A DNA stretch of 64,000 bases from Candidatus Uhrbacteria bacterium. GTDB lineage: Bacteria > Patescibacteriota > Patescibacteriia > UBA9934 > GWF2-40-263. This document shows, piece by piece, positions 32,919 through 40,110 of this stretch (positions are counted from its first letter, which is position 1; each line of letters starts with the position of its first letter). The stretch is taken from NCBI GenBank assembly GCA_013204385.1, contig JABMNY010000013.1, positions 517 through 64,516 of the forward strand, written 5' to 3'. The position numbers and the translations under genes were made by a program. The notes under the pieces are model-generated. The model saw only the letters and a list, made by a program, of their open reading frames with translations, was not told the origin of the DNA and did not search any database.

Positions 32919-33803
32919 TCATAAAGAAAGTCTTTTTCGATGCTGTTTGAGAAGTTTATCTTTGATAAGACGGGACACCATGTCGTCGATCCATTCTTGA
33001 TCTAGATGTTGATCGAACATCGGGTCGATGAGTGGACCTAGTTGATTTGATCTGATGGTTACTCGTTCTCGTACTGTTTTAAGGATTCGGCCTCGGTAGA
33101 TGCGGTCTGGATAGGGTTTATTTCGATACTGTCGTTCCTTTGGTTTTTTTGTAGATCGTTTCGGAATCGTTACAGTTTTTTCTAAAAAGTTCTTTGATGC
33201 GAAACACTCATTTTTAAGTGGACAGCGGGCACAATCTGGTGATTTGGTACAAATACTGGTTGCAAGGTCAAAGATGGCCTGTGGGACGTCCCAGTAGGCT
33301 CCACGGCGCGGAAGAAACTCTTCTGTACAGCCGTGAATCTTTTCATCATCTGCCAGTTGCGGAAAATGAATTCCTAGAAGATAACGACCAAGAACTCGAC
33401 GGATGTTTGTATCAATCGGAAGTGTTCGTTTTCTTTGAGCGAAGGCACTAATCGCCGAAGCTGTGTAAGGACCAATCCCTTTGATTGTTAACCATTCATC
33501 TTCAGTCTGAGGAAGACCATTTAGATTGACTGTACGCGCCACGTCTCGAAGCATGAGTGCTCTGCGGTTATAGCCGAGTCCCGCCCATGCTGTAATGACT
33601 TCTGCATTTGTGGCAAGCGAGAGTTTCTTCCAGGAGGGGAATTGTTTCAGCCAAGATTTGTAATAGACTCGAACACGATCTACTTGAGTCTGCTGCAACA
33701 TGATTTCACTCACGAGGATGCGATAAGGGTCTTGCGTCTTCCTCCAAGGGAGATCTCGACCATGTACGCGATACCAGCGGAGTAGGAGTGTTGCCGGTTT
33801 CAT
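32919..33803 (-). CDS. A/G-specific adenine glycosylase-like HhH-GPD base-excision repair protein (MutY/Nth superfamily) with a 4Fe-4S loop
   Basis: LLRWYRVHGRDLPWR N-terminus, the HhH-GPD motif (LTIKGIGPYTASAI), and a C-x6-C-x2-C-x5-C cluster (CTKSPDCARCPLKNEC). It lacks an obvious C-terminal MutT-like domain. Confidence 0.7.
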   Translation of the reverse strand: MKPATLLLRWYRVHGRDLPWRKTQDPYRILVSEIMLQQTQVDRVRVYYKSWLKQFPSWKKLSLATNAEVITAWAGLGYNRRALMLRDVARTVNLNGLPQTEDEWLTIKGIGPYTASAISAFAQRKRTLPIDTNIRRVLGRYLLGIHFPQLADDEKIHGCTEEFLPRRGAYWDVPQAIFDLATSICTKSPDCARCPLKNECFASKNFLEKTVTIPKRSTKKPKERQYRNKPYPDRIYRGRILKTVRERVTIRSNQLGPLIDPMFDQHLDQEWIDDMVSRLIKDKLLKQHRKRLSL

Positions 33804-34387: not shown

Positions 34388-34434
34388 ATCAAGTACCATA
34401 GTAACATATGCGAACATCGTCAAAATCTCCACTC

Positions 34435-35514
34435 ATGACAGCTCTTTTTGCCTCCTTACTACTCATTGCAATTCTGCTTGCCATTGCCGTTGGAGCAAAG
34501 CTCGGGAAGACAAAAACTTCTCCACAAGTTCAAGAGAGTCTGAACGCGCAAGAAACTCCTTCTGTAGAAGAGACTCAGAAAGAAAAAGATGAACCAGCTC
34601 CCGTCTTTTTTTCGATCATGACACATCTAGAAGGTAACTGGACACAAGCAATTGACTTCGAACCATTTTTCGATCGACAGGCAGAGTATCTCAGACAAGG
34701 ATATGCGTATGCACAAACATACAACGCCATTCTCACGATTGAATCTGAAATTCCAATGGCGGAAGCGATGGTCAAATGGAATGACAATCTTCTTCAAGAG
34801 GCACTTGATCTTGGGCAAGGGGTTGGAACACATTGTGATATCACTCCAAGTGAAAAATATTCAACAGAGGAGATCATTGAAGAATTTGCCAGACGTAAGC
34901 GTGCCGTTGATGTATTAGTCGATCCTTCAGAAAATCTTGGTTGTTCTGGTGGAGGAGGTGTGAGTGATTGGTATCTTGGGGCTGTCGGAGCTGGGTTTGA
35001 CTACATTGATGGAACTGTCGGATTTCATTTGTTAGCAGTCCCTGTACGTGAACGACCGCAGGGGTGGGATAACCGTGCGATTCTTTCTGAGTATTACCAT
35101 TATGGAGTCCCTCGTGAAGATCAGAAGAAGTACTATCCGTTTTTCATTTCTAACGTTGGATTTGAGGAAGATCCGAGTGGAGCTTTGTTGGTGAGTGCTG
35201 GTGATATAGGTGCTATTCAAGCTATTGCAGAATTGGAAGGGAAAGAAGGATGGGATGGAGACTGTGAGGGGGAGTGTGAATTTTCCCGAGAAGATGTTGA
35301 TGTGCTTGTGGAGCGGATTCAGACGCTTGTTGACGATCGAGATGAGACACGGGTCATGAAACTTCAGGTCTATATTGCGACTCAGTATTATGCGGATCCA
35401 GACATGGAATACTTTTTTCAAGAGATGGAAAAGCTTCAAGATGAACAGGTATTTCAATGGGCAAGTCAAAAGCAAGTCTATGAAGCCGTTGTTGATTGGG
35501 ATGATCGATCCTAA
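34435..35514 (+). CDS. Hypothetical membrane-anchored or secreted protein (about 360 aa)
   Basis: N-terminal hydrophobic segment, then a Thr/Glu-rich linker and a Cys-containing globular domain. No family recognised. Confidence 0.4.
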   Translation: MTALFASLLLIAILLAIAVGAKLGKTKTSPQVQESLNAQETPSVEETQKEKDEPAPVFFSIMTHLEGNWTQAIDFEPFFDRQAEYLRQGYAYAQTYNAILTIESEIPMAEAMVKWNDNLLQEALDLGQGVGTHCDITPSEKYSTEEIIEEFARRKRAVDVLVDPSENLGCSGGGGVSDWYLGAVGAGFDYIDGTVGFHLLAVPVRERPQGWDNRAILSEYYHYGVPREDQKKYYPFFISNVGFEEDPSGALLVSAGDIGAIQAIAELEGKEGWDGDCEGECEFSREDVDVLVERIQTLVDDRDETRVMKLQVYIATQYYADPDMEYFFQEMEKLQDEQVFQWASQKQVYEAVVDWDDRS

Positions 35515-35637
35515 GACGCTTGACACGCTCTTGAGCTCTTGATAGAGGCTCGTGTAAACTATCCTTACCTAAGCGTTTAGGTATTAATTCATAAACTATC
35601 CTTGAGGCATAAAGACAGATGTCTTAGCCACAATGTT

Positions 35638-35805
35638 ATGCTGTATCAATACAGTTTCGTCTCCGGTGATGAGTGGGACGATGACGATGACGATGACGAT
35701 GACATGGACCTGGGTATGGGCAGTGACGAAGAAGATGATGACGACGATGCCGATACGGACATGGACCTTGACATGGGTCTCGACGACGACGGAGACGAAT
35801 GGTAA
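35638..35805 (+). CDS. Candidate 55-aa poly-acidic peptide (MLYQYSFVSGDEWDDDDDDDDDMDLGMGSDEEDDDDDADTDMDLDMGLDDDGDEW)
   Basis: In-frame ATG at 35638 (the ORF track extends to a TTG at 35602). It ends 6 nt before a perfect hairpin. An alternative overlapping frame, 35633..35815, encodes a Thr/Met/Trp-rich peptide. Which frame is real was not resolved. Confidence 0.3.
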   Translation: MLYQYSFVSGDEWDDDDDDDDDMDLGMGSDEEDDDDDADTDMDLDMGLDDDGDEW

Positions 35806-35809
35806 CGAT

Positions 35810-35840
35810 AAATGAGATCCGCATGGATCTCATTTATATT
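35810..35840 (+). terminator. Perfect hairpin plus T-rich tail after the small acidic ORF
   Basis: aaatgagatcc gca tggatctcattt followed by atattctt. Confidence 0.55.
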
Positions 35841-35851
35841 CTTGCGAAGTA

Positions 35852-35875
35852 CTTGTCTTGACAAGGTGTTATAAT
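35852..35875 (+). promoter_or_regulatory. Extended -10 promoter (TGTTATAAT) with an overlapping perfect inverted repeat cttgtc-tt-gacaag
   Basis: TGnTATAAT at 35867-35875. The inverted repeat at 35852-35865 looks like an operator. The promoter lies about 65 nt upstream of the rimK-like ATG. Confidence 0.4.
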
Positions 35876-35939
35876 AGACTAAACTAACGTCCTTGCTTAG
35901 AAATCAAAAACAGCGTATCTTCCAGACGAATTTTGAAAT

Positions 35940-36890
35940 ATGCATATAGCCATTCTCGTATTTGAACAGGAGAAGAAAGAACTTCTACCTGGGTCTAAAA
36001 TGCTCATGGATAAGGCACATCTCATGAAGCATGAGGTGACGATCTTGAGAGAAAATGAATTGTACATTTTGTACGATGGTCAAAGAGAATCTCTTTTTCT
36101 TGCGGGTAAACCGCTGGAGAAGTTTGATGCAGTCATCGTGCGTCCAAGTTTTACTTCAGACCCATCCATTCACGCATCACTCATACGTCAGTTTGAGTTA
36201 CAAGGATACCTTGTAATCAATACGCACTCTGGTGTACATCGAGCTAAAAATAAAGTTCGTACTCTTCAACTTCTTCATCACTATGGAATCCCTATGCCAA
36301 AGACGGTCGTACTTTTTGGGGAAGGGAATTTAGATGAAGTCATGCATGAGTTTAAATATCCAGTGATTGTAAAATCAGCATACGGAGCGGGTGGATCAGG
36401 AGTGTTCATTGCAGAGTCTAAACGATCACTCAAACCCGTGGTTGAACATTTGTTAAAGCGTTCAAAAGTAGAACCAATTAAAATTCAAGAATACATCGCT
36501 GAATCAAAAGGAAAAGATTTACGATTATTCATTGTCGGGAAAAAAGTGGTCGCCACGATGCAGAGATCTGCAAAGAAGGGGGAGTTTCGTTCCAACTTTC
36601 ATAAGGGTGGAAGTGTAAAGGGGGTGCAACCAACAAAACAAGAAGAAGAGATGGCGCTCGCTGCAAGTATTGGGTTGGGTCTTGATATTTCTGGAGTTGA
36701 TATTCTTAGAACCAAAAAAGGACCCGTGATTATCGAAGTGAATTCTCAACCTGGACTTGAGGGAATCAGTCTGGCAACAGGGGTTGATGTCGCAAAAAAA
36801 ATTATTGAATACACAGAAAAATGCGCGAACCTCCGAAAACGAAACGGACAACGACCAGCAAAGGAAAAGCGAAAGTCTCAAGAAGGGTAA
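35940..36890 (+). CDS. rimK: RimK-family ATP-grasp alpha-L-glutamate ligase
   Basis: ATP-grasp motifs (PVIVKSAYGAGGSGV, LRLFIVG, IEVNSQPGL). The RimK/LysX/CofF-like N-terminus and the 316-aa length match the family. Confidence 0.8.
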   Translation: MHIAILVFEQEKKELLPGSKMLMDKAHLMKHEVTILRENELYILYDGQRESLFLAGKPLEKFDAVIVRPSFTSDPSIHASLIRQFELQGYLVINTHSGVHRAKNKVRTLQLLHHYGIPMPKTVVLFGEGNLDEVMHEFKYPVIVKSAYGAGGSGVFIAESKRSLKPVVEHLLKRSKVEPIKIQEYIAESKGKDLRLFIVGKKVVATMQRSAKKGEFRSNFHKGGSVKGVQPTKQEEEMALAASIGLGLDISGVDILRTKKGPVIIEVNSQPGLEGISLATGVDVAKKIIEYTEKCANLRKRNGQRPAKEKRKSQEG

Positions 36891-37415
36891 TTGTCTATGC
36901 AACTTCCATTTCGTCCAAAACAGCAGATGAAGCAACTTCTCCAAAAGGATGAACCGCTTTATCTTACGAAGGAGGGAATAGAAAAGTTCCATCGTCGACT
37001 TAAACAAATTGCGGAAGTGGAATTACCGCAAGCCATTGAGGATGTCAGACGAACAGGGGAGTTTGGGGACTTCTCTGAGAATGCCGAATATCAAGAAGCA
37101 AAGTGGCGCATGAGACGGCTTCGTGATCAACAAACATCCATCACAGAAAAACTAAAGATATCAATACTCATCGAAACGACATCCGAAGACGAAGGGATGG
37201 TACAAATGGGCTCAAGGGTCTGTATAAAGAAGCAGACCGGGGAAGCGAAGTCTTTTCAGATTGTAGGACCAGAAGAGACAGATCCATTGAAAGGAAGGCT
37301 CTCCTTTAAATCCCCATTGGGAGCCCGTCTAATGGGGCGCACAGTGGGAGAGGAAGTTACCCTTTCAAGTCCATCAGGCGAGACGGTTTATCAAATCATT
37401 TCCATTGACTCTTAA
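36891..37415 (+). CDS. greA: Transcription elongation factor GreA
   Basis: GDFSENAEY motif in the coiled-coil domain and a C-terminal FKBP-like domain (SFQIVGPEE...SPLGARLMG). Confidence 0.85.
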   Translation: MSMQLPFRPKQQMKQLLQKDEPLYLTKEGIEKFHRRLKQIAEVELPQAIEDVRRTGEFGDFSENAEYQEAKWRMRRLRDQQTSITEKLKISILIETTSEDEGMVQMGSRVCIKKQTGEAKSFQIVGPEETDPLKGRLSFKSPLGARLMGRTVGEEVTLSSPSGETVYQIISIDS

Positions 37416-38850: not shown

Positions 38851-40110
38851 ATGTCTAGAGATGAGTTAGAAAAGAAAGAATTTTACGGATTAGGAATTGC
38901 TCCAACACTCTTAGAGCGAATTGAAGCACTTGGATTTAAACATCCGACCCCGATTCAATTTAAAGCCATTCCTATTGCTTGTACCGGAGAAGATGTTGTC
39001 GGAATTGCACAAACAGGAACAGGAAAGACACTCGCGTTCTCTATCCCCATGCTTCAGCAAATGGCTGCTCGTGGGAAGAAAGGTCTCATTTTGCTTCCAA
39101 CACGTGAGCTTGCTATTCAGGTTGAGACCACTCTCGAGAAACTTGCTGGACCTCTTGGGTTGCGTACAGTGCTTCTTATTGGAGGAGTGAATCCAAACCC
39201 ACAGATCAAAAAACTTCGATTAAAACCACATGTCATTATTGCGACCCCAGGGCGACTCATCGACATGATGCAACAAAAGCATGCGAGACTTGATCAGATT
39301 GGGGTACTTGTTCTTGATGAGGCTGATAGAATGCTTGATATGGGGTTTGCTCCACAACTCAAGAAGATTCTTGCAACCGTTCCTTCTGAGCGTCAAACAA
39401 TGCTTTTTTCAGCAACCATGCCAGAGCAAATTGCTTCTATTGCACGTCAATACATGAAGAGTCCATTGCGTGTGGAAGTCGCTCCTGCAGGAACAACCGC
39501 TGAAAGCGTGGAACAAGAGATGTTTATTGTTCCTAAGAACGACAAAACAGAGCTTTTAAAACGCTTGCTCACGGAATATAAAGGAACAATCCTCGTTTTT
39601 TGTCGAACAAAACATGGAGCAAGTAAACTTGCTCGTTCAATTCGAGGAATGGGGCATAGCTCTGCAGAGATTCATTCAAACCGTTCACAGAATCAGCGAC
39701 AAGAAGCACTTCGTGGGTTTACAAATGGAAAGTACCGTGTGATGGTGGCAACGGATATTGCTGCGCGTGGAATTGACGTGAAAAATATTGAGCTCGTTGT
39801 CAATTACGATCTTCCTGATCAACTTGAAGATTATGTTCACCGTATTGGACGAACGGGTCGAGCGGGAAGTACAGGAAAAGCAATTTCGTTTGCAGCTCCT
39901 GAACAAAAAAATGATATTATCCAAATTGAACGTTTGATCAAAGCGACTCTAACGGTAAAAACACCAGAAGGGGAATTGATAGAGCGCAAAGATCGTGCTG
40001 GAAGTGGTGGAGGCTCTCGATCACGCTCAGGTGGCGGAGGTCGTGGTGGACGTAGTGGTGGTGGACGTCCAGGACGTGCACGAACGCGAGGTCCTTCAAA
40101 ACGATATTAA
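38851..40110 (+). CDS. DEAD-box ATP-dependent RNA helicase with a C-terminal RGG/Gly-Arg-rich tail
   Basis: Q motif, GTGKT, DEAD (VLDEADRM), SAT, HRIGRTGRAG, and a tail GSGGGSRSRSGGGGRGGRSGGGRPGRAR. Confidence 0.9.
   Translation: MSRDELEKKEFYGLGIAPTLLERIEALGFKHPTPIQFKAIPIACTGEDVVGIAQTGTGKTLAFSIPMLQQMAARGKKGLILLPTRELAIQVETTLEKLAGPLGLRTVLLIGGVNPNPQIKKLRLKPHVIIATPGRLIDMMQQKHARLDQIGVLVLDEADRMLDMGFAPQLKKILATVPSERQTMLFSATMPEQIASIARQYMKSPLRVEVAPAGTTAESVEQEMFIVPKNDKTELLKRLLTEYKGTILVFCRTKHGASKLARSIRGMGHSSAEIHSNRSQNQRQEALRGFTNGKYRVMVATDIAARGIDVKNIELVVNYDLPDQLEDYVHRIGRTGRAGSTGKAISFAAPEQKNDIIQIERLIKATLTVKTPEGELIERKDRAGSGGGSRSRSGGGGRGGRSGGGRPGRARTRGPSKRY

Follow-up and report, generated by a model that had tools for sequence, protein, structure and literature searches.

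A predicted gene for a small polyacidic protein, with its own transcription signals, upstream of rimK in a clade of Candidatus Uhrbacteria

In a 64,000-nucleotide stretch of DNA from a Candidatus Uhrbacteria bacterium (contig JABMNY010000013.1), which we call the window, a 55-amino-acid open reading frame (ORF) of extreme acidity lies directly upstream of rimK, a gene for a RimK-family ligase. The ORF, here termed the micro-gene, runs on the plus strand from an ATG at 35638 to a TAA at 35805 and would encode MLYQYSFVSGDEWDDDDDDDDDMDLGMGSDEEDDDDDADTDMDLDMGLDDDGDEW, a peptide with 25 Asp, 4 Glu, no Lys or Arg and a net charge of -29. Measured over the stop-to-stop frame, it ranks first in acidity among the 785 window ORFs of at least 40 amino acids, with an Asp plus Glu fraction of 0.41 compared to 0.27 for the next. 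A first-pass annotation of the window had described this Asp/Glu-rich ORF and suggested that its product could be a dedicated substrate or carrier peptide for the ligase, a mimic of the S6 tail or a regulatory decoy. The ORF is present as described, and comparison of ten loci indicates that it is a real gene.

The related loci compared with the window are labelled L001-L074. Homologues were sought in 58 rimK loci from species-representative genomes, each of which was scanned, by a profile search against 5.8 billion protein clusters, and by an exhaustive HMMER search of 1.84 billion representative proteins. The ten distinct members of the family are the window, L001, L071, L002 (the same as the L062 contig), L009, L059, L064, L072, L065 (with L066-L070) and L060. 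Over all 45 pairs of these members, the acidic frame collects 362 differences at first, 378 at second and 1004 at third codon positions, and 451 of 1188 codon changes (38%) are synonymous, compared to 85 of 1132 and 87 of 1071 (approximately 8%) in the shifted frames. Indels in the alignment comprise whole codons, keeping the frame. Despite lengths of 45 to 55 amino acids and turnover of the sequence, net charge ranges only from -23 to -29 and basic residues number zero to two. The excess of third-position changes, the synonymous share, the in-frame indels and the constant charge therefore identify the acidic frame as the coding frame, under purifying selection on charge and on the terminal motifs. 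This settles a choice that the first-pass annotation had left open between the acidic frame and a Thr/Met-rich ORF in the +2 frame (35633-35815). The second ORF exists, but it is ruled out as coding by the 7.5% of its codon changes that are synonymous, versus 38% in the acidic frame; it stays open because the shifted GAY and GAR codons are unable to make stops. The start codon is a conserved ATG. An N-terminal extension from TTG 35602 was ruled out, since L001 and L071 have an in-frame TAA there and the ATGs that L060 has upstream are in other frames.

The family is conserved at its ends and variable in between. All ten members begin with M(L/F)(Y/Q)xYS(F/I)(V/A), followed by (S/T/P).D(E/P)(W/F/S), and nine of the ten end in DMG..D(D/E)G(D/N/G)EW, thereby keeping a penultimate Glu and a GDEW-type end; L060 ends in NEDE. 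Both ends are short aromatic/hydrophobic motifs, MLYQYSFVS.DEW N-terminally and DMG..DDGDEW C-terminally. The middle is Asp/Glu-rich and of variable length, and in nine members it includes DMDxGMG, or more generally D-M-D-x-(D/G)-M-G. Each member is approximately 50% Asp plus Glu and has 3 to 6 Gly, and Met numbers 4 to 8 in nine of them (2 in L060). Cys occurs in none of the ten, and the micro-protein has neither His nor a signal peptide. AlphaFold2 with the family alignment gave a predicted template modeling score of 0.13 and no secondary structure, and the micro-protein is accordingly predicted to be intrinsically disordered.

Few relatives exist in current databases. Within the 1.84 billion representative proteins the family comprises five clusters, every one of them from a single Uhrbacteria sub-clade, and the profile search gave three matches in the 5.8 billion protein clusters. 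The peptide had zero matches in Pfam, NCBIfam, PHROGs or the PDB sequences, and a DNA-pattern scan of metagenomes returned only the L002 contig again plus two chance matches. By these searches the micro-gene is an orphan restricted to one small Candidatus Uhrbacteria clade. It is without described relatives, but in kind it is a gene for a small acidic disordered protein.

The micro-gene is flanked by signals of its own. A putative promoter, recognized by consensus at 35519-35560 on the plus strand, consists of CTTGACA (35519-35525), CTTGAG (35530-35535) and a -10 box TAAACT (35555-35560). The arrangement CTTGACAnnnnCTTGAR with a TAnnnT box approximately 18 nucleotides (nt) further on is kept in all ten loci, and the motif CTTGACAnnnnCTTGAR occurs a single time within the window. 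Transcription would likely start at approximately 35567, the first base of the palindrome ACCTAAGCGTTTAGGT (35567-35582, plus strand; ACCTAA-GCGT-TTAGGT), which would form hairpin 1 at the predicted 5' end of the transcript. Hairpin 1 is part of the minimum free energy fold and is identical in sequence in eight of the ten loci, being missing from L060 and L072; among the ten loci it shows no covariation, and its conservation is at the sequence level only. The first-pass annotation had noted this near-palindrome together with a direct repeat around it. Both are present and the palindrome is conserved, whereas the repeat, TAAACTATCCTT at 35555-35566 and 35592-35603, starts one base away from where it had been placed and is found in the window only.

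Between the palindrome and the start codon, the leader contains elements that could govern translation. A near-invariant single-stranded block, TAATTCATAA (35585-35594, plus strand), stands out in alignments of the loci. Its CATAA is complementary to the TTATG at the start codon, and CAT/ATG pairing is possible in all ten loci. A duplex of this kind would close around hairpin 2 and hide the start codon, and it would be unable to covary. Hairpin 2 (35602-35633, plus strand; TTGAGGC...GCCACAA) ends 4 nt 5' of the ATG and is predicted at the same place in all ten loci, with a conserved TTGAGGC/GCCACAA base and an upper stem that differs completely in sequence yet always pairs; compensatory changes were observed. 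The start region reads (A/C)AYGTTATG and has no Shine-Dalgarno sequence. Hairpin 3 (35641-35654, plus strand; CTGTAT-CA-ATACAG) lies in the predicted fold inside codons 2-6. Synonymous change is near zero in these codons, whereas the codons of C-terminal residues that are just as conserved change freely in their third positions. Promoter and leader have pairwise identities of 0.54-0.78 versus 0.23-0.57 for rimK third positions in the same pairs, and in the near-identical pair L002 and L009 the values are 0.96 for the leader and 0.67 for rimK third positions. The leader is thus more alike than rimK third positions are, which argues that its 71 nt are under purifying selection. No further copies of the leader were found in the window or in approximately 0.7 Mb of related DNA, where it occurs only with the micro-gene. 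In a comparison of the window with Rfam, only one tRNA elsewhere reached the gathering score, and matches at E<=10 within 35450-35960 were at chance level.

Downstream, the perfect hairpin terminator that had been reported directly after the ORF is confirmed and is conserved in relatives. It spans 35808-35845 on the plus strand, with 13-nt perfect arms (35808-35820 and 35825-35837), a loop of 4 nt and then TATATTCTT; a simple terminator scan did not flag the hairpin at 35808-35837. Past the stop codon, the loci examined, L072 among them, have a GC-rich hairpin with a T-tract, and its stems differ in sequence with compensatory changes. The hairpin begins 2-7 nt past the stop in most loci and approximately 130 nt past it in L065. 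The predicted transcript of approximately 280 nt folds better than shuffled controls (z = -2.7).

The gene that follows has a promoter as well. In the window a scan placed TTGACA-16-TAAACT at 35858-35885 on the plus strand, with an extended -10 box, TGTTATAAT, at 35867-35875. Upstream of whatever follows the micro-gene, be it a MOFRL gene, rimK or greA, this box is kept as TGGTATACT, and the ATG of the next gene lies 8-10 nt past it in L001, L002, L009, L072 and L065, which implies leaderless mRNAs for these genes in the relatives. In the window, approximately 60 nt separate the box from the rimK ATG. The stretches concerned are 2600-2650 in L001, 2620-2650 in L002, 1045-1072 in L072, 6360-6385 in L065 and 35867-35939 in the window. 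The perfect inverted repeat that the first-pass annotation had paired with this extended -10 element (CTTGTC-TT-GACAAG, 35852-35865) does overlap TTGACA and adjoin TGTTATAAT, but it is present in the window only. This repeat and the direct repeat TAAACTATCCTT are absent from relatives and are therefore probably incidental. With a promoter and a terminator for the micro-gene and a separate promoter for the next gene, the arrangement points to a monocistronic, separately transcribed unit.

The neighboring rimK (35940-36890, plus strand) encodes a RimK-family alpha-L-glutamate ligase of 316 amino acids by Pfam and NCBIfam, consistent with the RimK-type ATP-grasp ligase first reported there. NCBI lists an identical protein for a Candidatus Uhrbacteria bacterium (Patescibacteria). 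It matches PF08443 (RimK, 5.3e-52), PF18030 (pre-ATP-grasp, 4.3e-09) and TIGR00768 (226 bits versus a cutoff of 143). Against the S6--L-glutamate ligase equivalog NF007764 it scores 209 bits, under the cutoff of 331; this is still its best specific model, with MptN (156 bits), LysX (134) and CofF (97) behind. The nearest solved structures are those of Pseudomonas RimK (7QYS/7QYR, 1e-54 to 1e-55) and E. coli RimK (4IWX/5ZCT, 4e-52), compared to 1e-16 to 1e-23 for LysX/ArgX. We conclude from these matches that the window ligase is an S6-type RimK and not LysX-type. Its grouping with the S6-modifying enzymes of Pseudomonas and E. coli (1e-52 to 1e-55) lends no support to a dedicated pairing with the micro-gene. 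In E. coli RimK, the positively charged belt and first Glu site comprise R64, R96, R98, R102 and R189 (PMC10375531). The aligned residues in the window RimK are R68, R101, K103, R107 and R195. Searches with tblastn found neither rpsF nor rpsR in the window or in any fetched locus. A reading of the micro-gene as a graspetide precursor, which calls for an MvdD-type or graspetide-type maturase and a Thr/Ser/Lys plus Asp/Glu core, was rejected: the ligase scores only 24-26 bits against the maturase models TIGR04184 and TIGR04187, with cutoffs of 350-475, so that the MvdD-type maturase match fails, and the Thr-rich frame is noncoding.

The RimK C-terminus (36797-36890 in the window) is a Lys/Arg-rich tail that is found in nearly all Patescibacteria orthologues examined (L001-L054, with L054 lacking it). 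The tail ends in Glu, Glu-Gly or Glu-Ala, as in ...KEKRKSQEG in the window, ...RRKMTE in L012 and ...KRRMME in L020, and Glu315 is invariant in a 20-sequence alignment. A flexible basic tail ending in this way on a glutamate ligase suggests possible self-glutamylation or autoregulation. As a correlate of the micro-gene the tail was rejected, since lineages without the micro-gene have it too.

How closely the micro-gene and rimK belong together can be judged from gene order. The conserved block runs MutY (minus strand), CYTH (minus strand), a 368-amino-acid protein, the micro-gene, a 439-amino-acid DUF4147/MOFRL glycerate-kinase-like protein, rimK, greA, a secreted protein, DUF218 (minus strand) and a DEAD helicase. 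In four loci (the window, L059, L064 and L072) rimK is directly downstream of the micro-gene, and in four others (L001, L071, L002 and L009) the MOFRL gene comes first and then rimK. Thus rimK lies no more than 1.5 kb downstream of the micro-gene in 8 of 10 distinct loci. In L065-L070 (12 contigs) greA is directly downstream and rimK is not at the locus, and in L060 the DEAD helicase is directly downstream, with neither rimK nor greA at the locus. The MOFRL gene is absent from the window (35806-35939, versus 2588-4000 in L001), L059 and L064, and in L072 it lies behind rimK, where the micro-gene still adjoins rimK; its position reflects gene-order flux within an otherwise conserved block. The micro-gene therefore abuts rimK in the window because the intervening MOFRL gene is missing between the promoter box and rimK.

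Conversely, rimK is common where the micro-gene is not. Of the 50 Patescibacteria rimK loci whose upstream sequence extends for 1.7 kb or more, 47 are without an acidic ORF, and the nearest syntenic sisters (L004, L007 and L073/L074) have rimK and lack the micro-gene. The DEAD helicases of L065 and L060 are 82-84% identical to that of the window, within the 81-91% of micro-gene carriers and above the 74-76% of the micro-less L004, L007, L073 and L074, which places L065 and L060 inside the micro-gene clade. The 210-nt spacer between the micro-gene and greA in L065 contains no trace of a rimK or MOFRL remnant. Because 47 of 50 rimK loci lack the micro-gene and two nested lineages keep it without a local rimK, these comparisons indicate that RimK predates the micro-gene and is maintained without it, and that rimK left the locus on two occasions, by loss or relocation, with the micro-gene remaining in place. 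The relatives bear out the acidic frame and show variable linkage between ORF and ligase. The two genes appear to be adjacent mostly through shared gene order, and a partnership is not demonstrated; a dedicated RimK substrate role is not supported by these comparisons.

Taking these observations together, we judge the chance somewhat better than even that the locus is a composite: a lineage-specific, independently expressed gene for a polyanionic disordered protein that is under translational control and acts in trans. A strong sigma-70-type promoter would start the transcript of approximately 280 nt and the intrinsic terminator would close the unit. The leader would set the amount of micro-protein by occluding the start-codon region, and it probably limits translation in this way. 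The product would be a soluble polyanion acting in trans: as a mimic of an acidic tail or a nucleic acid it would bind positively charged surfaces of at least one partner, and its terminal aromatic motifs would serve as anchors that confer specificity. Polyanion-mimic binding in trans is the most likely mode of action by analogy with polyacidic disordered proteins and tails such as DSS1/Sem1, prothymosin-alpha, the C-terminal domain of RNA polymerase delta and the SSB tip ...DDDIPF. The micro-protein resembles these in being short, disordered and approximately 50% Asp plus Glu, with a few aromatic anchors and an acidic run with an aromatic C-terminal residue. It has no sequence homology to them, and the likeness is compositional only. 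The RimK basic belt is one possible target among several. Several points weigh against this interpretation. The mimic mechanism draws on composition and analogy, the closeness of rimK in most loci and its adjacency in the rearranged L072 would fit a functional tie to RimK, the absence of rimK in L065 and L060 is seen at the locus only, and the repeated DMDxGMG motif could signify metal binding instead.

An alternative is that the micro-protein is a client of RimK: a substrate, primer or S6-tail mimic that rides the RimK belt and either has its C-terminus extended with Glu or competes with S6. Acidic C-terminal tails bind RimK on its arginine belt (PMC10375531; PMC10092738), and E. coli R64, R96, R102 and R189 are kept in the window ligase as R68, R101, R107 and R195. 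The linkage within 1.5 kb, the adjacency that survives local rearrangement in L072, and the penultimate Glu with a ...GDEW end in nine of ten members are also consistent with a client. Set against these are the separate transcription units of the two genes, the 47 rimK loci and closest sisters that do without the micro-gene, the intact micro-genes without rimK at the locus in L065-L070 and L060, and the lack of a remnant of a former rimK in the L065 spacer. As rimK is widespread without the micro-gene, RimK must have another, older substrate. Furthermore, the C-terminal residue is Trp, whereas characterised RimK activates and acylates the alpha-carboxyl of a C-terminal Glu, on S6 or poly-Glu (PMC10375531). 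We therefore regard a client role as unlikely. The most specific form of the proposal is doubtful. In it, an S6-type RimK in this clade would have the ribosomally encoded micro-protein as a second client, a free polyanion on its basic belt that would either prime poly-alpha-glutamate or titrate RimK as an S6-tail mimic, with supply set by the leader. If true, RimK would gain its first substrate or regulator besides S6, and a bona fide RimK would for the first time be seen to have a stand-alone peptide as partner.

Comparison with known ligase-partner systems bears on the same question. As in the RimK/S6 (RpsF) system of E. coli and Pseudomonas, the locus has a RimK-family ligase with belt residues kept and a neighboring peptide that, like the S6 tail, is acidic. 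Unlike S6, whose Glu-Glu tail belongs to a folded ribosomal protein, the micro-protein is free-standing and ends in Trp; the rimA and rimB genes (EAL-domain and retropepsin-like) are not nearby, beyond a single clade the linkage with rimK is not kept, and the ligase scores 209 bits against the S6 ligase cutoff of 331. The first-pass annotation had also raised the LysW carrier of the LysW/LysX (ArgX) system, whose C-terminus is EDWGE. There too a small acidic protein (approximately 54 amino acids) adjoins a RimK-superfamily ligase and has Asp/Glu-Trp near the C-terminus, as in GDEW here. The micro-protein differs in having no Cys4 zinc-finger globular domain, no folded domain according to AlphaFold2, no terminal Glu and no EDWGE. 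The ligase is far from LysX/ArgX (LysX 134 versus RimK 226 bits; 1e-16 to 1e-23 versus 1e-55), and lysY, lysZ, lysJ and lysK are not in the block, where the neighbors are instead MutY, CYTH, MOFRL, GreA, DUF218 and DEAD genes. A LysW-type carrier is ruled out by the Trp end, the lack of Cys and of a zinc finger, the RimK-type ligase and the lack of lysine or arginine biosynthesis genes nearby.

It is also conceivable, if quite improbable, that the micro-protein binds or buffers metal ions, through Asp tracts for Ca2+ or Mg2+ or through Met/Asp/Gly segments (DMDLGMG, DMDLDMG) and Trp for Cu(I). Met-rich 'Mets' motifs bind copper and acidic Ca-binding proteins exist, and the family's abundance of Asp, Glu, Met and Gly, its scarcity of basic residues, and the D-M-D-x-(D/G)-M-G motif in nine of ten members would suit such a role. 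Nevertheless, in the loci compared no gene for a metal transporter, sensor or metalloenzyme recurs next to the micro-gene, and the protein lacks His, Cys and a signal peptide. The 368-amino-acid protein encoded directly upstream has a sole match, to MctB, that is not meaningful (E 0.0066, below cutoff, transmembrane segment only).

A very improbable alternative is that the ORF is a cis-acting leader peptide whose translation tunes termination and read-through by the supply of Asp- and Glu-tRNA. Like the attenuator leader peptides of the hisL, trpL and pheL type, it is short, enriched in one codon class and directly 5' of an intrinsic terminator, with the stop 2-7 nt from the hairpin in most relatives. 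Unlike them, it is three times longer (45-55 codons), its charge and its non-regulatory residues (YSF, DEW and DMG) are conserved, which is unexpected for an attenuator peptide, and no alternative antiterminator structure was identified. In addition, the following gene has its own conserved extended -10 promoter in all loci examined, 8-10 nt from its start in relatives, and varies among the MOFRL gene, rimK, greA and the DEAD helicase. The idea that the locus encodes a regulatory small RNA, perhaps dual-function, whose conserved 5' part base-pairs and whose ORF is secondary, is likewise very improbable: nucleotide-level conservation covers the leader and codons 1-8, with nearly no synonymous change, and the compact transcript folds well, but Rfam gave no match beyond chance even at E<=10, and the ORF body is under protein-level purifying selection, which implies that the protein is made.

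To our knowledge, the small proteins of candidate-phyla-radiation bacteria are almost unexplored, and we know of no substrate of RimK besides S6. The micro-gene is a tractable test case for a small protein, with its frame settled, its transcription unit defined and its regulatory leader conserved. Were it a RimK client, the substrate range of RimK would widen beyond S6; were it a general polyanionic mimic, it would be a bacterial counterpart to proteins of the DSS1 and prothymosin type. The locus also shows why function should be deduced from adjacency with caution where genomes are compact and syntenic, as the pairing with rimK in the window reflects a missing intervening gene.

The remaining genes of the block show a few features of their own. 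The greA gene (36897-37415, plus strand; Pfam GreA_GreB_N and GreA_GreB) is a conserved-block neighbor. Its mechanical ORF start is TTG 36891, and the MQLPFRPKQ N-terminus of relatives points to ATG 36897, 7 nt past the rimK stop. GreA here has an N-terminal extension of approximately 20 residues ahead of the usual start of the Gre N-terminal domain. The DEAD-box helicase (38851-40110) has an Arg/Gly-rich, RGG-like C-terminal tail, ...GSGGGSRSRSGGGGRGGRSGGGRPGRARTRGPSKRY, which was rejected as a correlate of the micro-gene because basic tails occur in all orthologues, with or without it. Directly upstream of the micro-gene, the 368-amino-acid protein (34408-35514) has an N-terminal hydrophobic segment and matches no Pfam or NCBIfam family; homologues occupy the same place in the micro-less L007 and L073 and are not found in L001, L002 or L059. 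Gene boundaries here are tight: on the minus strand the MutY-like gene shares 4 nt with the CYTH gene (33800-33803). The listed CYTH ORF, which has a GTG start, overlaps the start of the divergent 368-amino-acid protein gene by 25 nt (34408-34432), and the true CYTH start probably lies downstream of the annotated one.

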